A stretch of 23,637 nucleotides of DNA from a virus. Positions 1,557 to 19,917 of the stretch are shown here, one piece after another. The stretch lies in UHGV virus genome UHGV-1381150. One strand, written 5' to 3'. Below the pieces are notes generated by a model that had not been told where the DNA came from, made no database searches, and worked only from the letters and a program-made list of their open reading frames with translations. The position numbers and the translations under genes are program-made. Positions within the stretch are counted from its first letter, which is position 1; every line of letters begins with the position of its first letter.

Positions 1557-2297
1557 TTAACTGTCGGTGACGGTGATTCCTGCAACCACAGCAAGTTCAC
1601 CATTACCGGATACAACCGGAATGTTGACCTTGCCTGCAGCAACACCTTTCACGGTGATGGTCATACCACTGACCGACACGGTGGCTTTTGTTTTATCCGC
1701 AGACACCGCACGGAAGCTCTTGTCGGTTGCGCCTTCCGGCTGGAATGCCACGGTCAGCGTGATGCTCCGCCCTTTCACCACCGAAGTGCTGGCAGGCGTC
1801 ACGGTCATGCCGGTTGCCGCTGTTACCGTGCTGCGATCTTCTGCCATCGACGGACGTCCCACGTTGGTGACTTTCACCGTGCGGGTGATCACTTCCTTCG
1901 CCGTCACCGCCTTACCGATACTGCTGACCCAGCCGCGGAACACATCGACCGTGCCGTTCGGGAAGCGGATTTTATAGGCACGGGTATCCCCTTTATTAAA
2001 CCACGCCAGCAGCGCCTGCTGCCCCTGCTCTCCGGGCATCCACGCCAGCGTGAAGCTGGTATCTCCGGCAGATTTCTGCCCCTGCCCGGTCGCAGTCCAG
2101 TCCGCATTTTCATCATCGAGATAGCTGTCGTCATAGGACTCAGCGGTCAGTTCGCCGGGCGTCAGGTCTTTAACTTTTGCCAGACGCGACCAGTCAACGT
2201 CTGAAAGCGGATTCGCATAAGGGTCACCGCTCCCGTTATAAACCCACAGGGTGGTCCCGGCCCCTTTCACCGGTGCCAGAGGATTTGGTGTTGGCAT
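1557..2297 (-). CDS. V: Major tail tube protein gpV (start at internal Met, [18 protein letters not shown]...)
   Basis: Matches lambda gpV as recalled; the ORF-track N-terminal extension is not used in lambda. Confidence 0.9.
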
Positions 2298-2304
2298 ATC
2301 GTCC

Positions 2305-2700
2305 TCACATTTCATAGGTAATGACATAAGTCAGATCGGCTGAACTCCACAGGCCCGCATCATCGTCGCGCCGATAGTCATAGCCACTGGCCACCATACT
2401 GGTGATCAAATCTGACAGCGCCGGGATATCGCTCATCACCGGATAAATCCGGGACTCCATCCACGAATCCAGCTCTGAATCCGGCACCTGAGCAGGCAGG
2501 AAAACTTCAATATGCAGCTCCGCCTGCCAGGTATCGCTGTCCAGCTCTTCGCCCGTGTATTCAGCGCCGGTGAGATAAACGGCAATTGCCGGAAAATCTT
2601 CCTCATCAAAAACAGCGGGGCGACCATCAAAAAGCGTCGCCCCGGTGTCATGCTTCTCCAGTGCATCCAGTACGGCTGCACGGAGTTCAGTATGTTTCAT
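2305..2700 (-). CDS. U: Tail terminator protein gpU
   Basis: 131-aa [23 protein letters not shown]... matches lambda gpU as recalled; stop of Z overlaps its start. Confidence 0.92.
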
Positions 2701-3275
2701 CGCTTTATTACCATCCTCAGTTGATGCTGCAGCGCATAGCCCAGCTCTTTCGGAAGACGTTCACGCCGTATCCGCTCAATATTTTGTTTAAACGCCGTGG
2801 TCAGCGGCACCGCCATCGGGATTTTCACCACATCAATGGGGTAACGGTTTTTCCCGGCCACACGCTGCATGACATGCCACCGGCCATTTTTCAGTTGCTG
2901 AATAAACGCGCCGGGAATACGACGGTTACCCACCACAAGCACGCTGCCGCCACCTTTCAGGGATGAACGCTGCCCCTTTTTACGACGCCTGCGGCGCGAA
3001 AGGACAACCCGCGCATTACCCAGCCTGATTACGGGCAAATCCCCCCGGTTAACTTTGATTCTGGCCTGCGGATTTTTGACCGTGGCCCTTTTCAGCCTGG
3101 CCCTTTCCTTTACCAGTTTCCGGCGTACCTTTGTCTCACGGGCAACCTGTGACGCCGACTGCGATATCGCGGATGACGCAACGCGGTTAATGGCCATTGC
3201 GGCGGCACCGGGCACCGCCGTTCTGCTGATACGGCTGAGGTTTTCAACGGCCTGCTCAAGACCTTTTATGGCCAT
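2697..3275 (-). CDS. Z: Tail completion protein gpZ
   Basis: 192-aa ORF MAIKGLEQAVENLSRIS... matches lambda gpZ as recalled. Confidence 0.92.
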   Translation of the reverse strand: MAIKGLEQAVENLSRISRTAVPGAAAMAINRVASSAISQSASQVARETKVRRKLVKERARLKRATVKNPQARIKVNRGDLPVIRLGNARVVLSRRRRRKKGQRSSLKGGGSVLVVGNRRIPGAFIQQLKNGRWHVMQRVAGKNRYPIDVVKIPMAVPLTTAFKQNIERIRRERLPKELGYALQHQLRMVIKR

Positions 3276-3286
3276 TCATCCCCCTT

Positions 3287-3640
3287 TCAGCGGCGACGGT
3301 TAACGGCAGGCGGTACGCCCCGCCCAAGCCAGAGATGACAGCTTCCGCCATCATCCGGCGAAATCCGGTCTATCCAGAAGTTTTCCTCACCGATGGTCAG
3401 CGTGTCGCCGCGCCGCAGCTGCCGCACATCATCAGTCCGGACAAACAGGGACGGGCTGGAGCCTTCAACGCGCACGCCCTGTCCGGCATAGCTGATATTT
3501 TCAGGGTCATCAAAAACACCACGTATCACAGCACCGGACTGCTCACCGGATGTCATGGTGGCTGACGTTCCCATGTACCCGCGTATCGTTTCATCGGCGC
3601 AGGCAATGGCAGCATCGAACAGGTTATCGAAATCAGCCAC
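3287..3640 (-). CDS. FII: Head-tail joining protein gpFII
   Basis: 117-aa ORF MADFDNLFDAAIA... matches lambda gpFII as recalled. Confidence 0.92.
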   Translation of the reverse strand: MADFDNLFDAAIACADETIRGYMGTSATMTSGEQSGAVIRGVFDDPENISYAGQGVRVEGSSPSLFVRTDDVRQLRRGDTLTIGEENFWIDRISPDDGGSCHLWLGRGVPPAVNRRR

Positions 3641-3651
3641 AGCGCCTCCCG

Positions 3652-4047
3652 TTATTGCATTCTGGCCAGGCCGCGCTCTGTCATTTCAGCTGCCACACCG
3701 GCAGAGACACGAAACGCCGTTCCCGGCAGCACAAATGCCACAGCCTCATCCCGCGTGGCGTGAAGTGCATCAGTATGCAGCGTCACCAGTGCCACAACCG
3801 TGACCAGATCAGCCGTATCAGTCACGGTATCCGGCTGCGCTGATACAACCTCATTTTCATGCACGGTCAGCACATTTTCCGGGCTGACAGACGTGTCCTG
3901 ACCGGCTGCGTCATCCGTGTCATCAAGCTCCTCTTCCAGCTCTGCCACACGGAGCGCCAGTTCTTCTTTCGTCCCCGTCAGGCTGACATCACGGTTCAGT
4001 TGCTCACCCAGCGAACGGAGACGGGCAATCAGTTCATCTTTCGTCAT
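3652..4047 (-). CDS. FI: DNA packaging/head assembly protein gpFI (start at internal Met MTKDELIARLRSLGEQ)
   Basis: Matches lambda gpFI as recalled, with a more divergent middle; the ORF-track N-terminal extension is unlikely to be translated. Confidence 0.85.
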   Translation of the reverse strand: MTKDELIARLRSLGEQLNRDVSLTGTKEELALRVAELEEELDDTDDAAGQDTSVSPENVLTVHENEVVSAQPDTVTDTADLVTVVALVTLHTDALHATRDEAVAFVLPGTAFRVSAGVAAEMTERGLARMQ

Positions 4048-4088
4048 GGACTCCTCCACAGAGAGAAAATGGCCCCGAAGGGCCATGA

Positions 4089-5114
4089 TTACGCCAGTTG
4101 AACGGACACGAACTCATCAGGATCAGCCAGCAGCATCAGCGGTGCTGACTGAATCATGGTGAACTCTCGCGCCGGATCGCCGGATGTCTTCCAGTTTTTC
4201 GGATAACGGGGAGACGCATTAATACCCTCACTCAATGCATCCGCATCCTGAATACAGCCATAGGTGCGCAGACCGCGTGCATGAGTGTTACCCAGCACCA
4301 TCGTGTTGTCCGGCAGGAAGTTCTTTTTGACGCCGTTTTCCACGTACTGTCCGGAATACACGACGATGGCCACATCGCCATACATTCCCTTATAAGACAC
4401 CGCTTTGCCCAGGTCTTTTACCGCTGTCTCCAGTTCGGAATGAGAGCCGCGACGGGTATCCAGCTTCTCCCTGACGGCTTTGAAGGAACGGAACAGCGCC
4501 CAGCCTTTCGGGTCAAACACGATGATATTCACCACACCGCTGGCGTTCAGCGCGTAGGCTTCGATATCGTCGGTCGGGTCATACGTGGACTTGTCGCGCT
4601 TGCTCCACCCCGTGCTGCCGGACTGCGTGATGTTATTCGCTTCACTGCGACCCATATCCACCTCAACCGGATCGAAGGCTTCACCGGTCATGGTGTATTT
4701 GCCCTTAAGCACGGCAGAAACTGCCTGCATCTCTTCGACCTGAGCAATGGCCAGCTCTTCGTCACGCATGTTCTGCATGATGATGCGACGGCGGCGGTAA
4801 GCCGGGTCCGCCAGATTCTGCGGATCTTCATCCAGCAGGCGACGCAGGGTCATCTGCGGATTCACTTCATGCTTCGGCTTGACATATCCCGGCGTAAATT
4901 CAGAGGTGGAGCCGCCACGGGAACGGATAACCTCACCGGAAACAATCGGCGAAACGTACAGCGCCATGTTTACCAGTCCCGGAATTTGTGAGAGATAGAC
5001 TTTCTCCGTAGTGAAGGGATAGCTCTCACGGAAAAAGAGACGCAGAAACAGCGGATCAAACTTAAATTTCTGCTCATTTGCCGCCAGCAGCTGGGCGGTT
5101 GTGTACATCGACAT
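4089..5114 (-). CDS. E: Major capsid protein gpE (start MSMYTTAQLLAANEQ, 341 aa)
   Basis: Near-identical to lambda gpE as recalled. Confidence 0.93.
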   Translation of the reverse strand: MSMYTTAQLLAANEQKFKFDPLFLRLFFRESYPFTTEKVYLSQIPGLVNMALYVSPIVSGEVIRSRGGSTSEFTPGYVKPKHEVNPQMTLRRLLDEDPQNLADPAYRRRRIIMQNMRDEELAIAQVEEMQAVSAVLKGKYTMTGEAFDPVEVDMGRSEANNITQSGSTGWSKRDKSTYDPTDDIEAYALNASGVVNIIVFDPKGWALFRSFKAVREKLDTRRGSHSELETAVKDLGKAVSYKGMYGDVAIVVYSGQYVENGVKKNFLPDNTMVLGNTHARGLRTYGCIQDADALSEGINASPRYPKNWKTSGDPAREFTMIQSAPLMLLADPDEFVSVQLA

Positions 5115-6831: not shown

Positions 6832-10512
<3,681 letters not shown>

Positions 10513-11058: not shown

Positions 11059-11260
11059 TGTTCATTCCACGGCCAAAAACAGAGAAAGGAAACGACAAAG
11101 GCCCAAAAGTTCGTTTTCAGCACCTGTCGTTTCCTTTCTTTTCAGGGGGTATTTTAAATAAAAACATTAAGTTACGACGAAGAAGAACGGAAACGCCTTA
11201 AACCGGAAAATTTTCATAAATAGCGAAAACCCGCGAGGTCGCCGCCCCGTAACCTGTCGG
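11059..11260 (-). other. cos site: cosB between Nu1 and cosN; cosN 12-nt cohesive-end sequence GGGCGGCGACCT on the minus strand at 11236-11247
   Basis: Reverse complement of 11141-11247 reads GGGGCGGCGACCTCGCGGGTTTTCGCTATTTATGAAAATTTTCCGGTTTAAGGCG..., matching the lambda left end as recalled; sequence is continuous across cosN. Confidence 0.85.
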
Positions 11261-11282
11261 ATCGCCGGAAAGGACCCGCAAA

Positions 11283-11299
11283 ATGATAATAATTATCAT
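11283..11299. promoter_or_regulatory. Perfect 17-bp palindrome ATGATAATAATTATCAT containing the 7-1-7 Fur-box consensus TGATAAT-n-ATTATCA
   Basis: Read directly from the sequence; 15/15 match to the idealised Fur box; lies about 150 bp upstream of the plus-strand ORF at 11447. Confidence 0.5.
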
Positions 11300-11446
11300 C
11301 TGCATGTCACAACGTGCATCTACGCCATCAAACCACGTCAAATAATCAATTATGACGCAGGTATCATATTAATTGATCTGCATCAACTTAACGTAAAAAC
11401 AACTTCAGACAATACAAATCAGCGACACTGAATACGGGACAACCTC

Positions 11447-11680
11447 ATGTCAACGAAGAACAGAACCCGCAGAACAACAACCCGCAACATCCGCTTTCCT
11501 AACCAAATGATTGAACAAATTAACATCGCTCTTGATCAAAAAGGGTCCGGGAATTTCTCAGCCTGGGTCATTGAAGCCTGCCGCCGGAGACTGTGCTCAG
11601 AAAAAAGAGTTTCTCCTGAAGCAAACAAAGAAAAGAGTGACATTACTGAATTGCTCAGAAAACAGATCAGACCAGATTGA
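11447..11680 (+). CDS. Small basic protein (77 aa), possible ribbon-helix-helix DNA-binding fold
   Basis: ORF on the strand opposite to the late genes next to cos (the bor position in lambda); RNIRFPNQMIEQINIAL...FSAWVIEACRRRL resembles a strand-helix-helix pattern; family assignment uncertain. Confidence 0.45.
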   Translation: MSTKNRTRRTTTRNIRFPNQMIEQINIALDQKGSGNFSAWVIEACRRRLCSEKRVSPEANKEKSDITELLRKQIRPD

Positions 11681-11736
11681 AGCAATTTAGATAATCGTGC
11701 AGACTACGCCCCTCATATCACATGGAAGGTACTACA

Positions 11737-12147
11737 ATGGCTCAGGTTGCCATTTTTAAACAAATATTCGATAAAGTGCGAAATAATTTAAACTATCACT
11801 GGTTTTATTCTGAACTAAAACGTCACAATGTCTCACATTACATTTACTATTTAGCCACAGAGAATATTCATCTTGTTCTTGAAAACGATAATACGGTTTT
11901 AATAAAAGGACAGGGTAAGGTTGTAAATGTAAGATTTTCAAAAAATAAATGCCTTATAGAAGCCACATTAAAAGGATTCAAATCAGGAGAGTTATCATTT
12001 TACGAATACAGGAAAAATCTTGCTACAGCAGGGGTTTTCAGATGGATTACAAATATCCACGAAAACAAAAGGTATTACTATACCTTTGATAATTCATTAC
12101 TCTTTACTGAGAACATTCAGAACACTACACAAATATTTCCGCACTAA
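11737..12147 (+). CDS. Hypothetical moron protein (136 aa from [11 protein letters not shown]), possibly DUF1398/YbcV-like
   Basis: GGAAGG Shine-Dalgarno 8 nt upstream of the ATG at 11737; AT-rich codon usage; family call is from memory only. Confidence 0.55.
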
Positions 12148-12637
12148 ATCATAACGTCCGGTTTCTTCCGCGCCAGAACCGGACTCGCTGGCATGATGAA
12201 ATATGTGTACCCGGTAACCCCGGTGTGCATCGTTTTTGATTATTCCCGCACACTCGCGCAGAAGGAGTTCCCCGTCGGGCTGCGGTCTCTGTTAATACGG
12301 GAATACGGCGACGATACAGCGCATGATGTGTCAGGCTTGAATACCTTTATCCTTTAAAAGGGATATCAGTTAAGTTATCCCGTGTAGGGTATAAGCCATT
12401 ATCAAAGCCACTCTGTAGGAAGTGCTTTTGTAATGGCAATAAAAAGCCCCGCGAATGCGAGGCTAAATCCTGGTATTTGTAATGACTGGCTCTTATCTCA
12501 ACGCAGCCCCTTACCGCGCGCAAAATGCTCAATATCAAGCATCAGCAATGAGATGTTTAATCTGGATTCACTCCAGAAGTGAGCACCACCCTGTCTACAG
12601 AGCCAGATGTGAAGGATGATGAGTAAAATTATCGCTA

Positions 12638-13075
12638 TCATCGAAGGCATTGCGTCCTGATGTACTCCTGCAGGTAGTTAACCTGCGCGGTTATCCTGTC
12701 GATTCCACTTCGGAGACGGTAATAATTGAGTTCAGCATCTGCTGTAAGTCTTGGGCTTTCTCCATCGCCCATGCTGCTGGCTCCGGTCTTTGACTTTGCA
12801 CATGAGGCGGCGACTTGCAGCCGCTTACGCCCAGCAGAAACATCATCACGGAGACTTTCGATAGTCGCGTTAGCATCAGCAAGCTCCTTTGTATATCTGG
12901 CGTCGAGTTCTGCTACGTCACGTTGACGCTTCTGCATGTCAGCGATGATGGATGTGGCTTTGTCGCGCTGGGCTTTGTAGGCGATGGCGTTATCACGGTA
13001 ATGATTAACAGCCCATAACAGGCAGACGATGATGCAGATAACCAGAGCGGAGATAATCGCGGTGACTCTGCTCAT
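12638..13075 (-). CDS. Rz: Spanin inner-membrane subunit Rz (i-spanin)
   Basis: 145-aa [34 protein letters not shown]... matches lambda Rz N-terminus as recalled; start overlaps R stop (ATGA). Confidence 0.9.
12691..12876 (-). CDS. Rz1: Spanin outer-membrane lipoprotein Rz1 (o-spanin), embedded in the +1 frame of Rz
   Basis: Nested ORF with signal peptide and lipobox LLGVSGC followed by a proline-rich segment; ATG at 12876. Confidence 0.8.
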
Positions 13076-13548
13076 GCCTCAATCTCTCTGACCGTTCCGC
13101 CTGCTTCTTTGAATTTTGAAATCAGACTGTCAGCCTTATGCTCGAACTGACCATAACCAGCGCCCGGCAATGAAGCCCAGATATTGCTGCAACGGTCGAT
13201 TGCCTGACGAATATCACCGCGGTCAATCATCGGTAAAGCGCCACGCTCTTTAATCTGTTGCAATGCCACAGCGTCCTGGCTTTTCGGAGAGAAGTCTTTC
13301 AGGCCAAGCTGCTTACGATAGGCATCCCACCAACGGGAAAGAAGCTGGTAACGTCCGGCTGCTGTTGATTTGAGTTTTGGGTTTAGCGTGACAAGTTTGC
13401 GAGGGTGATCGGAGTAATCAGTAAACAGTTCACCACCGACAATAACATCATAACCGTGGTTACGTGTCGGTTGTCGCCCGTTATCCGTTCCTTCTGACCA
13501 TGCAACCATATCCAGGAAAGCTTTACGCTGGGAATTTAGTACCTGCAT
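13072..13548 (-). CDS. R: Endolysin R (lambda-type lytic transglycosylase)
   Basis: 158-aa ORF ...[47 protein letters not shown]... matches lambda gpR as recalled; AAGGAG Shine-Dalgarno upstream. Confidence 0.93.
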
Positions 13549-13551
13549 AAA

Positions 13552-13887
13552 TTACTCCTTCGAGCTACCAAACTTGTTACCGATTACTCTCATTGCAGCC
13601 CCACGAATAGCATCGACACCGATCAGCCCCACCCCACCACCAATGGCAACAGAAAGCGATTTAGGCCATCCGACATACTCAAGCGCGGATGCAAAGGTCA
13701 ACGTCAGAGCGCCACATAGCAAAATCTCGAGCGTTTTTCGCTTCCAGCCACCACCACCGCCAAAATAGGCGATGCGCAAACCAGCCATAACAATCGACAT
13801 AATCACTGCGCCCAGCGGCGTATCTCCACGCCACCAGCTCTGAAACAACTCCAGCCAGTCCGGCCAAGTATTTGGGTTATGAGGCAT
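13552..13887 (-). CDS. Holin, class I-like with three predicted transmembrane segments, not lambda S type (start at internal ATG, MPHNPNTWPDW...)
   Basis: Immediately upstream of R; hydrophobic segments LGAVIMSIVMAGLRIAYF, TLEILLCGALTLTFASALEYV, LSVAIGGGVGLIGV; charged C-terminus; start is ambiguous (ORF track begins at 13983). Confidence 0.75.
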   Translation of the reverse strand: MPHNPNTWPDWLELFQSWWRGDTPLGAVIMSIVMAGLRIAYFGGGGGWKRKTLEILLCGALTLTFASALEYVGWPKSLSVAIGGGVGLIGVDAIRGAAMRVIGNKFGSSKE

Positions 13888-13963
13888 TTCGTCATCTCTC
13901 ACCTCGCGATATTTGCGGGTGCTGTGTTGGAAATAAAAAGGCCACGCAACGTGGCCACCAGAA

Positions 13964-15016
13964 TTATTTCCCCACCAGTTCACTTACCTCTTTCACCGTC
14001 TGATTAAATCGCTCTGACTCAAGTTCAACACCTAACGCCCGACGCCCCAGCGCCATTGCCGCTTTTATTGTGGAACCGGATCCCATAAAGAAATCAGCAA
14101 CCAGATCGCCTTGTCGACTACTGGCACTGATTATTTGCCGGAGCATATCCGCAGGCTTCTCACACGGATGTTTACCCGGGTAGAACTGAACGGGTTTATG
14201 CGTCCAGACGTCGGTATAAGGCACGGAAACTGATACGGAGAAATAGCGCCGGAGAGTTTTAAACTCATCCAGCAATTCAGAATATTTGCGATTCAGTGAA
14301 TCATAAGATGCCACCAGCTGGTGGTGTGGTTGTTCCAGTTGTTGTTCCTGAAATTTCTCTGCCGCTATACGGGAAAACAGTGCCTGCAACTTCCGGTAGT
14401 CAGCCTCATTCGGCAACTGCCACTGACTGGCACCAAACCAGTGGGAAACCATATTTTTCTTACCTGTGGCTTCGGCAATTTGTTTTGCCGTTATACCCAG
14501 TTCGGCACGAGCATCCCTGAAATACGATATCAGCGGTGCCATTATGTGCTGTTTGAGTTCCCTTTCTTTTGCCGCATAGCCGTCACTTTTGCCGCGATAT
14601 GGCCCCTGGTAATGTTCAGCAAACAGAACGCGCTCTGTGGCAGGAAAATATGCGCGCAGACTTTCTTTATTACACCCATTCCAACGTCCGGACGGCTTCG
14701 CCCAGATGATATGGTTAAGCACGTTGAAACGTTCACGCATCATGATCTCAATATCAGATGCCAGGCGATGCCCACAGAACAGGTAAAGGCTTCCGGCAGG
14801 TTTCAACACCCGCCAGAACTGGGCCAGACAGTGGTCCAGCCACTTAAGGTAATCTTCGTCCCCTTTCCACTGATTGTCCCAACCGTTGGGTTTCACCTTG
14901 AAGTAAGGCGGATCGGTAACAATCAGGTCAATGGAATCATCAGGCAGGGACTGAATAAAATGCAGGCAATCAGCGTTGATTAAATCAACACTGTTTATTT
15001 TTACAGTATTTTTCAT
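13964..15016 (-). CDS. DNA methyltransferase, beta-class amino-MTase (N6-adenine or N4-cytosine)
   Basis: 350-aa ORF with catalytic motif IV DPPY (IVTDPPYF) near the N-terminus and an AdoMet-binding FxGxG-like motif (DFFMGSGST) near the C-terminus, i.e. the IV-before-I order of beta-class enzymes. Confidence 0.85.
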   Translation of the reverse strand: MKNTVKINSVDLINADCLHFIQSLPDDSIDLIVTDPPYFKVKPNGWDNQWKGDEDYLKWLDHCLAQFWRVLKPAGSLYLFCGHRLASDIEIMMRERFNVLNHIIWAKPSGRWNGCNKESLRAYFPATERVLFAEHYQGPYRGKSDGYAAKERELKQHIMAPLISYFRDARAELGITAKQIAEATGKKNMVSHWFGASQWQLPNEADYRKLQALFSRIAAEKFQEQQLEQPHHQLVASYDSLNRKYSELLDEFKTLRRYFSVSVSVPYTDVWTHKPVQFYPGKHPCEKPADMLRQIISASSRQGDLVADFFMGSGSTIKAAMALGRRALGVELESERFNQTVKEVSELVGK

Positions 15017-15165
15017 GGATCAGTAAGCGTAACTCTGGTAGGCTCACTCTGCTTTTGCGCTAAAGCAGTGGGCCGTGGTTCGCTTGTGACCAGTAAGCAT
15101 GAGCGAATGGCTGGCAGGTGCTACCAACACCCACCAGCCGCCCATTTTCACAAATTAAAAGTCCT

Positions 15166-15360
15166 TCATTGCTGAAGGCGTCTGTAACAGCCGAACTGGT
15201 AATCTGCCAGCCCCGCCATAACCAACTGGGTCAGTATTAACTGACAGCGTTCGCGTGAAAGATATGTGTTTTGTGCAATCTCCCCGACTGTTGCCGGTTC
15301 GATGCTTAATTCATTAAAAACAACTTTCGCCGTTTCTGTCATATCTTGCTGTTTTAGCAT
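15166..15360 (-). CDS. Small winged-helix-like protein (64 aa from MLKQQDMTETAKV...)
   Basis: AGGA Shine-Dalgarno upstream of the ATG at 15360; VGEIAQNTYLSRERCQLILTQLVMAGLA resembles a wHTH recognition region; weak support. Confidence 0.4.
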   Translation of the reverse strand: MLKQQDMTETAKVVFNELSIEPATVGEIAQNTYLSRERCQLILTQLVMAGLADYQFGCYRRLQQ

Positions 15361-15482
15361 GTCTTTTTTCCTTCTGGTTAACATGACATACCAATAACTC
15401 TTGTCTAAAAAGCCAGCAAGATAAAAAGTCAGTATTCACGACCACCAGCGTGTTTACCGTACTGCACCAGGTTTACAGGTAC

Positions 15483-15506
15483 AAAAAAACCCGCTCGACG
15501 GCGGGT
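15483..15506 (-). terminator. Rho-independent terminator for the minus strand (hairpin CCCGCT-CGAC-GGCGGG followed by a 7-T run on the minus strand)
   Basis: Plus strand reads AAAAAAACCCGCTCGACGGCGGGT; GC-rich 5-6 bp stem with a U-tract on the minus-strand side; only TTT on the plus-strand side. Confidence 0.55.
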
Positions 15507-15553
15507 TTAAGTTGTGTGGCGAAGTAACCACTCTTAACACAATACAATACTTT

Positions 15554-15582
15554 TTGCGTACGCGTTATAGTTTTCTTACAAT
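15554..15582 (+). promoter_or_regulatory. Candidate sigma70 promoter of the DUF262/HEPN operon (-35 TTGCGT, 17-bp spacer, -10 TACAAT)
   Basis: Hexamers read directly; followed by AAAGGA RBS (15595-15600) and ATG at 15609; prediction only. Confidence 0.4.
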
Positions 15583-15608
15583 CAACTTTCAATTAAAGGA
15601 ACGAAAAC

Positions 15609-16769
15609 ATGACTACACTCAAAGAACTCAAAGAAGAGCTTGCTCAGATACAAGATGAACACGCTAAGAACAGAAAAAAGGCTGAAATTGCAGCTTTAAC
15701 CGCTTCCGCTGACAATGAAATCAGACTCGCTCAGAGAAACATTGGATACAATGTACGTGAGTGGACCGTTGAAGTCATTATTCAAAAGTATGGTGATAAT
15801 ATTGAAAATGACAAAAACGAGCTTTTTATTCCAGATTATCAACGTGATTACAAGTGGGATACAAAAACAGCCTCTCGCTTTATAGAAAGTATTCTATTAG
15901 ACTTTCCAATACCTTACCTTTACATTGCTGATGTATTTAATGAAGACCCTGAATTAGATGGTAGGGTAGAAATCATTGATGGTTCACAACGGATACGCTC
16001 TATTTATTATTTTTGGAACGATCAATTTGAGTTAAAGGATTTGAAAGAGCTTAAAAGTTTAGAAGGTTTCAAATTTTCAGATCTTTTAGCTAGCCGCCAA
16101 AGAAGATTTTTAAGAGCTTCACTAAGATTTATTGAGTTGAAAGGTGATGTTGAGGAACAACATAGAAGAGATTTATTTGAAAGGATCAACTCAGGTGTTA
16201 AAAGATTAGAAGCGATGGAAGTGAGGCATGGCTCAGATGCTGCTACCTCAATGTTCTATAAAGATGTTGTGACCCCATGCTCAACAAACTCACTTTTTTC
16301 CCAACTAGCTCCATTATCAGACCGGAAACGGTCGAATGGCGATCATCGTGAGTTAGTTTTGAGATTTTTTGCATATTTAAATGATTTAGAAAACTATAAG
16401 GGATTTGTCCGTCCCTTTATTGATAATTATTTAAATGAACAAGCAGCAGCTGTGACTACTCAACAAGATGTTGATAATTTTAAACATGATTTTGAAATGA
16501 TGCTTGCTTTTGTTGCTACCCATTTCCCTATTGGCTTTAAAAAGACCGCAACAAGTAAAACCACCCCACGAGCCAGATACGAAGCCATTGCCGTGGGAAC
16601 TGCACTTGCATTAAAAACTAACCCACAACTCCAGAGTCCAGCCGTACCTGTAGGTGAATGGCTATTTGAAGAGGAATTTGAAACACTTGTTACTGCTGAT
16701 AGTGCAAACAATACCAGCCAGCTAAAAAACAGAATCTTTTACGTTAAAAATAAGTTGTTAGGGATTTAA
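15609..16769 (+). CDS. DUF262/ParB-like (GmrS-type) NTPase-domain protein with an uncharacterised C-terminal half
   Basis: 386 aa; motifs IPDYQRDYKW (aa 74-83) and IIDGSQR (aa 122-128) match the hallmark motifs of DUF262 domains; N-terminal coiled-coil-like segment; AT-rich gene. Confidence 0.8.
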   Translation: MTTLKELKEELAQIQDEHAKNRKKAEIAALTASADNEIRLAQRNIGYNVREWTVEVIIQKYGDNIENDKNELFIPDYQRDYKWDTKTASRFIESILLDFPIPYLYIADVFNEDPELDGRVEIIDGSQRIRSIYYFWNDQFELKDLKELKSLEGFKFSDLLASRQRRFLRASLRFIELKGDVEEQHRRDLFERINSGVKRLEAMEVRHGSDAATSMFYKDVVTPCSTNSLFSQLAPLSDRKRSNGDHRELVLRFFAYLNDLENYKGFVRPFIDNYLNEQAAAVTTQQDVDNFKHDFEMMLAFVATHFPIGFKKTATSKTTPRARYEAIAVGTALALKTNPQLQSPAVPVGEWLFEEEFETLVTADSANNTSQLKNRIFYVKNKLLGI

Positions 16770-16771
16770 AA

Positions 16772-17461
16772 ATGAGTCTAATTGATTTACGAGATGAATA
16801 TGAAGAAAGAGCAAGAGACATTATGGAACTGCTTTCTCTTGCATCATCTATAGAGATTCATACTCAGCAGTTAGATCCGCAAGCGCATCAAGATGAAATA
16901 GAATCTAATATCCTAAGGGTAAATATTTTAAAATCATCCGTTCATATGATGCTATATAATCAAGTTGAAAATACTGCCAGAGGTTGCATCGAGTCAATTT
17001 ATGATCATTTACAAGATAATGAGGTGAATTACGCATCACTCAGGGAGAAGCTTCAAGTAAATATATTACATAGAATTGTTTCAGATAATGAAACAGGGCA
17101 ATCCCTTTATAAAAAGATAGGCACTGACATTTCCAAAAGAATAATTTCAGCCTCATTGAATATTCGTAAAGAATTCAATGGTAATGTTTGCAAGCCTGTA
17201 TTACACAAAATAACGCAGGCTTACGGAATAACTATCGCAAACTCACCTGAATGTAGAAATGGTATTGACTTAGACTTGCTTAAGGATATCAGAAACGAAC
17301 TCGCGCATGGAAGTACTAGCTTCTCTAAAAAGGGGCAAATTGACCCCTTAGAAGAAGTTAAGTCTAGAGCAGAGAGAGTTGATCTATATCTTCGTTTATT
17401 AATAAACTCAACTGAAGATTATATTATCTCTAACGGATATTTATCCCCTCAACATGCCTAA
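16772..17461 (+). CDS. HEPN-like protein (Rx4H motif RNELAH), putative effector partner of the DUF262 protein
   Basis: 229 aa; starts 2 nt after the stop of the upstream gene; predicted all-helical; conserved-looking R-x4-H motif at aa 174-179 (nt 17291-17308). Confidence 0.6.
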   Translation: MSLIDLRDEYEERARDIMELLSLASSIEIHTQQLDPQAHQDEIESNILRVNILKSSVHMMLYNQVENTARGCIESIYDHLQDNEVNYASLREKLQVNILHRIVSDNETGQSLYKKIGTDISKRIISASLNIRKEFNGNVCKPVLHKITQAYGITIANSPECRNGIDLDLLKDIRNELAHGSTSFSKKGQIDPLEEVKSRAERVDLYLRLLINSTEDYIISNGYLSPQHA

Positions 17462-18470
17462 CAAACGTTCTCCCTATTACTTGGCCAATTATAGGGGGAA
17501 CAGCATTACCAATCATCGTTCCTAACTTTTGGAATGAAAAAGGCGTATTTTTTCCAATAAATTTATAATCCATAGGAAAAGATTGTAAAATAGCAGCTTC
17601 ACGCAAAGTTATTGCTCTATTTTGCTCAGGATGTCCGAATCGCCCATTACCATATCCATAACATTGGGTAGTTATTGTAGGACTAGTATCGTCCCAAACC
17701 ATCCGTCCATAAACACTTTTATAGGTAGCACCTGAATGCTTTTTATGGCAATCCGCTCTAATTTCTTCAGGCCAATCATCCCACGTACCACCTGGTAAAG
17801 AGTGCAAGATTCGTTTAAGGTTAATATCCCTTAATTTAGGCGAACGATGCAATGGATCACTTTCGAGTTTCTCCCCTGCACCTATTTTTGGCAACTGACC
17901 AATAGCATCCTTTACTGTAACTTTACGGCTTACTTTTTTTTGATCAAGGCTGATTGGCCCCAATATGGACCCAATTAGAATTAATCTACGTCTATTTTGA
18001 GGCAAGCCATACTCGGAACATTTTACAACGTCGTACCACAGATGATACCCAAGAGTCTTTAATACACTAACAAACTCTTCAAAAACCTTATGATTTCTAA
18101 GTTGAGGAACATTTTCCATAGTCACAAGCTCTGGCATGACATCACTTACAATCCTCTGAAACTCAGATAAAAGACGCCACTTTGTATCATCTTTTCTGCT
18201 ATTTGGATTACGATACTTGGAAAACGGTTGGCAAGGGGCACAGCCTGCAAGTAATCTAATATTTCCTTCCTTGAACATAGCAGACACATCGCTGGATTGC
18301 AGTTCAGTAACTGACTGGTTAATGAACTTCGTTAAGGGATTATTGCTCTCAATAGCGAAACGGCAGGACTCATCAATATCAATGCCATGAGAAACTTCAA
18401 TCCCGGCTTTTTTTAGCCCAAAAGTTAAGCCCCCTGCGCCACAAAAAATGTCTACTGCTTGAATGTTCAC
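17430..18470 (-). CDS. DNA (cytosine-5)-methyltransferase, Dcm-like (GTG start with GGAG Shine-Dalgarno)
   Basis: 346 aa with canonical m5C-MTase motifs in order: I FCGAGG, IV GCAPCQPFS, VI ENV, VIII QNRRR, a variable target-recognition region, and C-terminal GNAV. Confidence 0.9.
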   Translation of the reverse strand: MNIQAVDIFCGAGGLTFGLKKAGIEVSHGIDIDESCRFAIESNNPLTKFINQSVTELQSSDVSAMFKEGNIRLLAGCAPCQPFSKYRNPNSRKDDTKWRLLSEFQRIVSDVMPELVTMENVPQLRNHKVFEEFVSVLKTLGYHLWYDVVKCSEYGLPQNRRRLILIGSILGPISLDQKKVSRKVTVKDAIGQLPKIGAGEKLESDPLHRSPKLRDINLKRILHSLPGGTWDDWPEEIRADCHKKHSGATYKSVYGRMVWDDTSPTITTQCYGYGNGRFGHPEQNRAITLREAAILQSFPMDYKFIGKNTPFSFQKLGTMIGNAVPPIIGQVIGRTFVRHVEGINIR

Positions 18471-18489
18471 AAGATTCTCCGTTACTTTA

Positions 18490-18535
18490 CCCTGGTATTA
18501 TATACACATAAAAGTTGGGAAAGTAGAATGATTTT
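18490..18535 (-). promoter_or_regulatory. Candidate late promoter pR' with presumed Q-utilisation site (-10 TATAAT at 18502..18497 on the minus strand)
   Basis: The 79-bp Q-to-MTase intergenic region contains a perfect TATAAT on the minus strand about 30 nt upstream of the MTase start; the -35 is weak (TACTTT), as is common for activator-dependent promoters. Confidence 0.35.
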
Positions 18536-18549
18536 ACATAGCACTTAAC

Positions 18550-18903
18550 TCATTGTATTAAATAAAAAAATGACAAGCATCCATCAATAAACCCCATAGC
18601 TGTTTGCATATCTTTTCGAACTGTTCCGTCTGAACATTTCCGCTTCTTTGCAATTGTACGGAGCGAAATGCCAACAACAAAGTGAGCAATTATCAGCTCA
18701 TACTCTGCCGGCTTGTATTTACGCAACCTAGCGACACAACCGTCTATTATGATGCCCTCATCATCATCGCACTGAATCCGGGACTTTCTGCCATGAGGTA
18801 AAAGCCGCTTGAAGCCAGCAGCTACCGGTTGCCAGTCCACACCACTGTTTTCTGCAGCAGCCCATGCCCCCCAGCGGTCCAAAACTTCATACATATCACG
18901 CAT
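18550..18903 (-). CDS. Q: Late-gene antiterminator Q (QuuD/Q21-like family)
   Basis: MRDMYEVLDRWGAWAAAENSG...QCDDDEGIIIDGCVARL resembles E. coli DLP12 QuuD as recalled; located directly upstream of the late operon. Confidence 0.8.
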   Translation of the reverse strand: MRDMYEVLDRWGAWAAAENSGVDWQPVAAGFKRLLPHGRKSRIQCDDDEGIIIDGCVARLRKYKPAEYELIIAHFVVGISLRTIAKKRKCSDGTVRKDMQTAMGFIDGCLSFFYLIQ

Positions 18904-18920
18904 CAACTTTCTCCACAAAA

Positions 18921-19916
18921 TCAGGCCAGCACGCCAATTGCCAGCGCACGATCGATAAAACGAAATATCAGCTCCAGCTGGGAGCCATACATCTCTTCAA
19001 ATGCCACGGTATCTGCATGCAGCTCGTCGTGATGCTTTCTGCACAAAGGCAACACAAAGAGGTCATGCGCTTTTGTACCCATTCCACCCTGACCGTGACC
19101 TATCAGGTGGTGGGGATCATCAGCAGGCTTTCCACAACATGCACACGGCTGTGTCTTAACCCAGCGCGTGTACTTTTCATTAACCCAGCGGCGACGTTTT
19201 GGGCGTAACATAAAAGACTCCGGCGACTCCGGATCCACTTTCAGCGCCAGCACCTTTTTCGCCTTATCCTGGATGATGCTGGTAGCAGGAACCGAAGGCA
19301 CAAGGTCACTTTCCCGGGTGACAGACGGCACAACAGGCTTCGGTAATCTCAGTGCCTTACGGGCTGCACTTTCCGGTAAGGCATCCGCCAGGTCATTACG
19401 AATCAGCCACCAGCACAGTTCCGGCATTGTCACAACGTGACTGTCATCAAAACCGAGATCCCGACGCACAACAGACAACACCCAGCGGGCACAGTTATCC
19501 GTTGCCATTGATTCCAGCCGTTCCGTGAACTGATCGCGCAGCTGGTTATCGCAGTGCCAGCACAGACGGATTGCACCCGGAGCGTGTCGCATTGTGGTCA
19601 TGTTCTCGCTGTGCCAGTCGGAATGAGGCCACTGGCAGCCTTTTTCACGAAGTAACCAGCTTTCAAGACATTCCACGCCACCAGCACGACGGATCACTGC
19701 CTCATTGCGGAACACGGCCCAAACGGCAGGATCATCCGCCAGCGGTTGTGACGCCGCGGGAACGGCACCACTGGCGAAAGATGAATAATGCTCCGGCTCA
19801 GGCTCCAGCAGGACACGCCCCTGCATAAACAGGGGCATCAGCTCTGAACCGGGCCTGAACAATACGATCCCCATACGCGGGGCAATTTCAGGGGTCAGTA
19901 GTGCTCTCACGGTCAC
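18921..19916 (-). CDS. DUF968-like protein with C-terminal HNH-like Cys/His cluster
   Basis: 331-aa ORF with CACCGKPADDPHHLIGHGQGGMGTKAHDLFVLPLCRKHHDELH near the C-terminus; typical position upstream of Q; start ambiguous (GTG at 19916 or ATG at 19874). Confidence 0.7.
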   Translation of the reverse strand: MTVRALLTPEIAPRMGIVLFRPGSELMPLFMQGRVLLEPEPEHYSSFASGAVPAASQPLADDPAVWAVFRNEAVIRRAGGVECLESWLLREKGCQWPHSDWHSENMTTMRHAPGAIRLCWHCDNQLRDQFTERLESMATDNCARWVLSVVRRDLGFDDSHVVTMPELCWWLIRNDLADALPESAARKALRLPKPVVPSVTRESDLVPSVPATSIIQDKAKKVLALKVDPESPESFMLRPKRRRWVNEKYTRWVKTQPCACCGKPADDPHHLIGHGQGGMGTKAHDLFVLPLCRKHHDELHADTVAFEEMYGSQLELIFRFIDRALAIGVLA

Positions 19917-19917
19917 C

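Follow-up and report, generated by a model that had tools for sequence, protein, structure and literature searches.

An AT-rich island beside the antiterminator gene

The virus genome UHGV-1381150, a stretch of 23,637 nucleotides (nt) referred to below in its full length as the window, is a lambdoid prophage of Escherichia coli with its late genes on the minus strand. Between the gene for its antiterminator Q and the lysis cassette, where a preliminary description made from the sequence alone had located it, lies an AT-rich island with exactly three long open reading frames (ORFs), all intact. The island was delimited by blastn breakpoints, alignments, the C-termini of Q proteins and base composition, and it and its immediate surroundings are as follows:

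15568-18570, no strand: AT-rich cargo island, about 3.0 kb
15609-16769, plus strand: DUF262/ParB-like protein, 386 amino acids (aa); Pfam GmrSD_N, E = 6e-26
16772-17461, plus strand: HEPN protein of the MAE_28990 (MAE_28990/RiboL-PSP) family, 229 aa; HEPN_MAE_28990, E = 3e-17
17430-18470, minus strand: C5-cytosine DNA methyltransferase (dcm), 346 aa, GTG start; Pfam DNA_methylase, E = 3e-54
18550-18918, minus strand: antiterminator Q, distantly Q21-like; Pfam PF06530, E = 5e-46
12638-13983, minus strand: lysis cassette (holin, lysozyme, Rz/Rz1), from ORFs, Pfam Phage_holin_3_1 and the annotation of relatives

In a sliding-window analysis, the GC content dropped from 0.49–0.58 to 0.34–0.41 over about 15250–18750; it was 0.368 in 15568–18580, compared with 0.492 in the left flank (12638–15567) and 0.534 in the right flank (18581–21500). 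The GC content at third codon positions was 0.27–0.31 in the three island genes and 0.43–0.67 in the backbone genes, and the synonymous codon usage of the island differed from that of the backbone with a summed chi-square of 403 (41 degrees of freedom), CTG being used 3 versus 47 times, TTA 39 versus 6 times and AGA 31 versus 5 times per 1000 codons. The AT-richness noted in the preliminary description is thereby borne out, and the codon usage is clearly different as well; the 40-mer quoted there as an example corresponds to 15621–15660 on the plus strand, within the part encoding the N-terminus of the DUF262 protein.

The block was first placed at 15400–18550. It is real, and only its edges have to be moved: the segment 15400–15567 is conserved backbone, the left edge is fuzzy and falls, depending on the relative compared, between about 15567 and 15588, and the right edge is at 18570/18571, within the last codons of Q. 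According to blastn, homology breaks on the left at 15567 with mEp460_4F5, 15588 with Stx2a_WGPS2, 15577 with cdtI and 15507 with SfV, and on the right at 18581 or later with all four phages. The absence of AB5-toxin-like ORFs and tRNAs, remarked upon earlier, was confirmed, as the three genes are of other kinds, no toxin gene is among them, and neither ARAGORN (tRNAs) nor Rfam gave a match in the island; no direct or inverted repeats hinting at transposition or site-specific insertion were found flanking it.

The first gene product matched two PADLOC profiles, NsnA with E = 5.9e-45 (profile positions 11–302 of 385) and PD-T4-2_A with E = 4.6e-27, and its DUF262 region also gave a weak REase_II match (E = 7e-4). 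The motifs QRDYKW, DGSQR and FERIN are invariant in 35 homologues with 53–91% identity, and in the AlphaFold2 (AF2) model, with a predicted local distance difference test (pLDDT) value of 82, the C-terminal domain is helical. Pfam, a PDB sequence search and an AF2 fold search detected no nuclease domain in this protein, GmrSD_N being the only domain found. DUF262 is regarded as the nucleoside triphosphatase (NTPase)/sensor domain of GmrSD, BrxU, SspE and Menshen (PMC10952713, PMC12065111), and the protein is predicted to be an NTPase and DNA sensor.

The start codon of the HEPN gene lies 2 nt past the DUF262 stop. Its product retains an intact Rx4H motif (R174-x4-H179), which is invariant down to 26% identity, and is predicted to be the effector nuclease, most likely a ribonuclease (RNase). 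The family is large, with about 1,270 representatives of 50% clusters; in the collection of isolated phages no close homologue of the HEPN protein was found, the only matches being those in P2_4B2 and Moraxella phages, with 27–30% identity. Neither the DUF262 nor the HEPN protein had a match in NCBIfam or in the PDB sequence search.

The third gene is convergent with the HEPN gene, their 3' ends overlapping by 32 nt. It is complete and encodes all the catalytic motifs of a C5-cytosine methyltransferase (FCGAGG, PCQ, ENV, QNRRR and GNAV), with a TIGR00675 match above the cutoff and matches to DNMT1 and M.HaeIII in the PDB. Of a classical type II restriction–modification system, which would combine a methyltransferase with a DNA endonuclease of a known fold, the island has the methyltransferase, and no PD-(D/E)XK, HNH, GIY-YIG or PLD domain was found in its proteins. 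All three proteins are already named by the Prokaryotic Genome Annotation Pipeline (PGAP).

The slot between Q and the probable late control element

Phages and prophages with flanks 92–98% identical to those of the window carry other genes at the same site, or none. The relative with the closest overall backbone, E. coli EC-129 (97.6% identity over 80% of the window), has two unrelated genes there, and the content of the slot in the relatives is listed below:

EC-129: 308-aa gene, as in mEp460_4F5, and a 182-aa uncharacterised gene
mEp460_4F5: 308-aa uncharacterised gene and a small minus-strand ORF
cdtI: DUF6731 protein and a 147-aa uncharacterised protein
Stx2a_WGPS2, 7615-9178, plus strand: 343-aa and 179-aa uncharacterised proteins
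E. coli TK3046, 1959-4798: OLD-like ATPase-Toprim protein (PADLOC HEC-04, 1e-34) and a different Dcm
40EC: NYN protein
LST200A: TIR-TM protein (PADLOC 2e-57)
AH20I049: 148-aa uncharacterised protein
SfV (different Q type): empty

Because phages of the same backbone hold other cargo at this site, the idea of horizontally acquired, swapped cargo already put forward in the preliminary description is supported, together with the foreign composition, and the three genes are not an ancestral core block. The main cargo genes of the relatives are all oriented opposite to the late strand, the only exceptions at the site being the small ORF of mEp460_4F5 and dcm of the window. No PADLOC match was obtained for the cargo of mEp460_4F5, cdtI and Stx2a_WGPS2, and the sole Pfam match among these genes was DUF6731 in the first gene of cdtI. 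The TK3046 slot provides a second pairing of a nuclease with a Dcm at the Q-proximal site; its Dcm as an orthologue of that in the window was ruled out, since only 96 nt align, at 73% identity.

To the left of the island, that is, downstream of it in the late direction, lies a conserved element recognised from alignments and a terminator scan, whose register was checked in 9–10 phages including that of Yersinia:

15487-15567, minus strand: late control element (probable pR', Q-utilisation site and tR')

Its order is ...ACGCGTACGCAAAAA..TAnnnT(5 nt)GAGTGGTTACTT..., with a GC-rich hairpin and then a T-run behind it. Every phage with this Q family shares the element, that of Yersinia among them, and GAGTGGTTACTT at 15533–15522 (minus strand) is invariant in all phages compared. 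The candidate −10 hexamer of pR' is TATTGT at 15544–15539; it behaves as would be expected of a real −10, since T-12, A-11 and T-7 are kept in nine diverged phages while the middle varies. An alternative reading of TATTGT at 15549–15544 was rejected, as it is absent from the Yersinia, LST200A and AH20I049 phages, in which 15544–15539 is conserved. The terminator scan placed an intrinsic hairpin at 15508–15487, followed by the T-run, and in SfV the homologous hairpin is annotated as the terminator after that phage's own Q. The late transcript is predicted to start near 15532 and, when terminated, to give a leader RNA of about 50 nt. A constitutive leader RNA is predicted for the segment from the putative pR' to the terminator (15481–15544, minus strand), with GAGTGGTTACTT as its first 12 nt; its position is analogous to that of the lambda 6S RNA or the StxS small RNA.

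The published work on pR' of Stx phages does not locate this promoter for the Q type of the window (PMC6266700). Since the conserved element is found at 15487–15567 and phages with the same Q do not share the sequence directly 3' of it, the best assignment for pR', the Q-utilisation site and tR' is the former position. We infer, because this element lies downstream of the island, that the island is situated between Q and pR'. It would thus not belong to the late transcript from which stx is expressed by Q antitermination, and the genes of the DUF262 and HEPN proteins, two of the three, are antisense to that transcript.

The comparison with Stx2a_WGPS2 is instructive in this respect. Its Q is of the same type, with 95% nt identity up to the break at 18581, and it is followed by a two-gene plus-strand cargo, the small ORF, the N6-methylase gene, the tRNA genes ileZ/argN/argO, stxAB, nanS-p and the holin gene. 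As this phage fills both, the Q-to-lysis interval consists of two separate slots. The preliminary description was therefore right to treat the Q-to-lysis region in general as variable, and wrong in the detail of equating the island with the position of stx, which belongs to a separate slot past the N6-methylase gene, as in Stx2a_WGPS2, whereas the island has the conserved promoter/terminator element downstream of it. In the window the stx slot is empty, the methylase gene abutting the holin gene. In the Stx2a phage with the same Q type (343 and 179 aa) and in Stx2c phages, the slot next to Q, from which stx is a few kb downstream, is filled by uncharacterised genes, and these may be regarded as candidate defence genes.

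Two promoters may be proposed for the island genes:

15555-15583, plus strand: candidate promoter of the DUF262-HEPN operon, −35 TTGCGT (15555-15560), 17-nt spacer, −10 TACAAT (15578-15583)
18502-18497, minus strand: candidate −10 TATAAT of dcm, within the 79 nt that separate the stop codon of Q from the start of dcm; a GGAG ribosome-binding site comes after it

In the former, the −35 is part of the conserved backbone and the −10 is on the cargo side; reading by eye, TAnnnT occurred 16–18 nt from a conserved TTGCG(T/G) in seven of the nine cargo variants, the window included. The latter was missed by the consensus scan, its −35 being weak, and dcm could also be transcribed by read-through from Q.

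The triad as a mobile unit and its predicted function

The genes for the DUF262 protein, the HEPN protein and the C5-methyltransferase were adjacent in all 12 assessable contexts, down to 29% identity of the HEPN protein. Among these contexts are:

Tn7-like cargo in Pseudoalteromonas
lambdoid prophage of Yersinia mollaretii, directly after a PF06530 Q
lambdoid prophage of Klebsiella pneumoniae, directly after a PF06530 Q
prophage of Salmonella bongori
integrase island of Vibrio owensii
beside McrBC in a Pseudomonas
nested inside a type I restriction–modification (R-M) locus, with hsdM/hsdS to one side and hsdR to the other (L017, 5001-7858)
P2-like Peduovirus P2_4B2, hotspot after the replication gene (L022, 140-3041)
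variant in another E. coli prophage, 86% nt identity

In Gammaproteobacteria the layout is fixed, convergent with the overlap, and two distant family members have the same three genes in other orders, one with DUF262, HEPN and methyltransferase genes co-directional and the other beginning with the methyltransferase gene, followed by those for DUF262 and HEPN. The three proteins co-diverge, HEPN being the fastest, and in every host the cassette is richer in AT than the sequences around it. Since the linkage recurs in 12 contexts, even with the gene order changed, the triad is, as far as comparative sequence analysis goes, one mobile functional unit. The DUF262/MAE_28990 HEPN pair of P2_4B2 is 30–40% identical to that of the window and is likewise accompanied by a convergent C5-methyltransferase gene, annotated as encoding 234 aa only, which may be truncated; its place after the replication gene is the position described as P2 defence hotspot #1 (PMC9519451). 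The type I R-M locus with the inserted triad represents one defence system nested in another. Among 5426 complete E. coli genomes, the island was present in 107, often with 100% identity, out of 1412 that matched some part of the query 15400–18550, mostly at its backbone edges; the collection of isolated phages contained none with a close copy of the island.

Operons of ParB, MAE_28990 HEPN and DNA methylase genes were predicted by Anantharaman et al. 2013, who gave the association only in a table (PMC3710099). The island agrees with these operons in having an MAE_28990 HEPN protein with Rx4H, within the Rx4-6H pattern, and adjacent genes for a DUF262 (ParB-superfamily) protein and a DNA methylase, and differs in being the cargo of a lambdoid prophage slot with, in Gammaproteobacteria, the fixed convergent-overlap layout. 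PD-T4-2 of E. coli ECOR65, consisting of DUF262 and HEPN proteins, confers protection from T4 in its native setting as well as from a clone (Vassallo et al. 2022, PMC9519451). The island shares with it the order of DUF262 and HEPN genes and a sensor matching PD-T4-2_A, although NsnA scores higher; its HEPN protein, however, is unmatched to PD-T4-2_B and is larger (229 aa, the PD-T4-2 ORFs totalling 1.54 kb), and the island pair is always accompanied by a C5-methyltransferase, while PD-T4-2 works without one. With Menshen (NsnABC) the island has in common the best PADLOC match, NsnA, which spans the ParB-DUF262 domain and the next helical domain (ParBDB), but it lacks the NsnB ATPase and the NsnC inPIN-nuclease effector and has HEPN and methylase genes instead. 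The type IV enzymes GmrSD, BrxU and SspE resemble its first protein in the N-terminal DUF262 NTPase/sensor domain with a DGxQR motif, and BrxU and SspE are among the top fold matches; the island, in contrast, has no DUF1524 HNH domain, its effector is a separate HEPN protein, and it is linked to a methylase, which type IV systems lack. By its sequence features, then, the triad fits the ParB-HEPN-methylase operon predicted in 2013, and is not Menshen, not GmrSD and not strictly PD-T4-2.

The reading that we favour, at a probability of roughly 0.6, is that 15568–18570 is a horizontally mobile three-gene defence cassette, which a lambdoid prophage with a PF06530 Q carries between the end of its Q gene and pR'. 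The suggestion of defence cargo in the preliminary description is in keeping with the NsnA and PD-T4-2_A matches, the HEPN protein with Rx4H, the C5-methyltransferase and the occurrence of the triad in recognised defence contexts. In the proposed scheme, the C5-methyltransferase would mark host and prophage DNA, and the DUF262/ParB-like protein would act as an NTP-dependent sensor of the modification state of incoming DNA and license the HEPN nuclease, most likely an RNase, so that translation arrest or abortive infection rather than DNA cutting would be the outcome. The system would accordingly be R-M-like, its "restriction" arm being formed by a ParB-type sensor and a HEPN effector. The sensor/effector operon would have a promoter of its own for expression in the lysogen, directed away from phage transcription and antisense to it, and dcm, co-oriented with Q, would be served by its own promoter and, on induction, by read-through of the early transcript, leading to methylated progeny DNA.

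Several points weigh against this reading. At E ≤ 0.01, PADLOC assigned no family to the HEPN protein, so that PD-T4-2_B remained unmatched, and the fold matches of the DUF262 protein (BrxU as the top one, Noc, SspE and ParB) were weak, with E values of 0.01–0.07. The promoters were assigned by eye, and the consensus scan called none. PD-T4-2 is a 1.8-kb two-gene clone active without a methylase (PMC9519451), and the methylase may therefore be dispensable for self-protection. Finally, Pfam, the PDB sequence search and the AF2 fold search revealed no DNA nuclease fold, so that true restriction activity is at most a possibility.

Some of these observations would suit another arrangement, in which the DUF262-HEPN pair is a type IV-like, modification-dependent system sensing hypermodified cytosines of the T-even kind, and Dcm is an orphan anti-restriction or epigenetic accessory. 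The occurrence of DUF262 as the sensor domain of GmrSD, BrxU and SspE, the defence of PD-T4-2 against T4 with two genes only and BrxU as the top fold match are all consistent with it, but the C5-methyltransferase accompanied the pair in 12 of 12 contexts, in rearranged orders and in unlike elements, which would be odd for an unrelated passenger, and the three proteins co-diverge; we consider this arrangement unlikely, though it is the most serious competitor. Many R-M systems stabilise their carriers by post-segregational killing, and the triad might likewise be a selfish addiction module, a methylase-plus-toxin set keeping its carrier by such killing, with phage defence only incidental. The slots in question, however, otherwise hold defence genes (TIR-TM and OLD-like proteins in the lambdoid slot, the P2 hotspot, the McrBC neighbourhood and the interior of the type I R-M locus), and addiction and defence are not mutually exclusive, so that this explanation appears improbable as a replacement for the defence cassette. 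Very improbable, and largely refuted, is the literal reading of the preliminary description as a late-operon moron at the stx position controlled by Q together with the late genes: the island does lie between Q and the lysis genes, with dcm on the late strand, but Stx2a_WGPS2 fills both slots and has the small ORF, N6-methylase and tRNA genes between them, the conserved promoter-like element and terminator of the Q family, at the inferred pR', are downstream of the island, the sequence just after Q is not conserved among same-Q phages, and the DUF262 and HEPN genes are antisense to late transcription.

Going beyond the defence cassette itself, two linked ideas can be offered very tentatively, and both together are rather doubtful. 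The Q–pR' interval would be an undescribed docking site for defence cargo, at which the −35 TTGCGT, in overlap with the region where Q probably binds, may come from the backbone and the −10 from the respective cargo; the cargo may then be on in the lysogen, and off or silenced by antisense transcription once Q loads and the phage goes lytic. The triad, in turn, would be an R-M-like system with a non-DNase restriction arm, in which the ParB-type sensor may read the C5-methylation status and unleash the HEPN RNase. No account of a defence hotspot next to Q in lambdoid phages turned up in a literature search, although absence there is no proof.

Neighbouring features and significance of the slot

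The remainder of the prophage is laid out as follows, from right to left:

early side: LexA-like gene, apparently frameshifted rusA, KilA-N gene, DUF968 gene, then Q and the island
past the island: 72-aa ORF, N6/N4 methyltransferase gene, holin, lysozyme and Rz genes, second AT-rich stretch
leftmost part, after the second AT-rich stretch: Nu1, terminase, portal and head genes

Two genes of the backbone adjoin the island on its late side, outside its borders:

15166-15384, minus strand: small 72-aa ORF
13964-15016, minus strand: N6/N4 DNA methyltransferase; Pfam N6_N4_Mtase, E = 1e-41

They are the first genes of the late operon and are kept in SfV, cdtI, mEp460 and Stx2a_WGPS2. On the other side, the island junction has altered the tail of Q (18550–18571 of the window), which ends ...DGCLS-FFYLIQ, the tails of relatives ending ...DG(V/C)LSML or MLDVKLEME. 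The final residues of Q21 make contact with RNA polymerase, and with the changed tail antitermination might be affected; the match of this Q to the Q21 structures was weak (E = 0.002).

The second AT-rich stretch (11100–12450, GC content 0.35–0.43), between the small terminase gene and Rz, contains plus-strand genes for a YlcI/YnfO-like protein (11447–11680) and a DUF1398 protein (11722–12147), and may, with these genes antisense to the late genes, be another cargo slot. The rusA gene (20735–21125), a single 390-nt gene in relatives, looks frameshifted, with overlapping ORFs at 20916–21125 and 20735–20992, and the prophage may be decaying. The last 416 nt of the window (23222–23637) match the IS3-family element of Stx2a_WGPS2, inverted and at another insertion point; an insertion sequence thus seems to interrupt the early/replication region at the window edge.

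Unrelated cargo is swapped here at a fixed site with conserved flanks, as it is in the defence hotspots of P2/P4 prophages (Rousset 2022; Vassallo 2022) and in the "pR' region" between Q and stx of Stx phages. Unlike the P2/P4 hotspots, the slot is bounded by Q and pR' in lambdoid phages whose Q is of the PF06530 family, and its cargo is antisense; it is also distinct from the stx slot, stx being downstream of tR' and the N6-methylase gene. The Q-proximal slot would be a lambdoid counterpart of the P2/P4 hotspots. Being fixed and easy to find right after Q, it can be mined for new defence genes, its cargo so far comprising TIR, OLD-like and NYN proteins, the DUF262-HEPN-Dcm triad and several uncharacterised genes. 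The triad is widespread, judging from the HEPN clusters, and has a predicted role in defence, which raises the question of what functional link joins a cytosine methylase with a ParB-like sensor and an RNase-type effector. For annotation, the lesson is that genes between Q and the lysis cassette are not automatically Q-controlled late morons like stx. While the cassette is ordinary as annotation, the slot that holds it looks useful as a defence hotspot.

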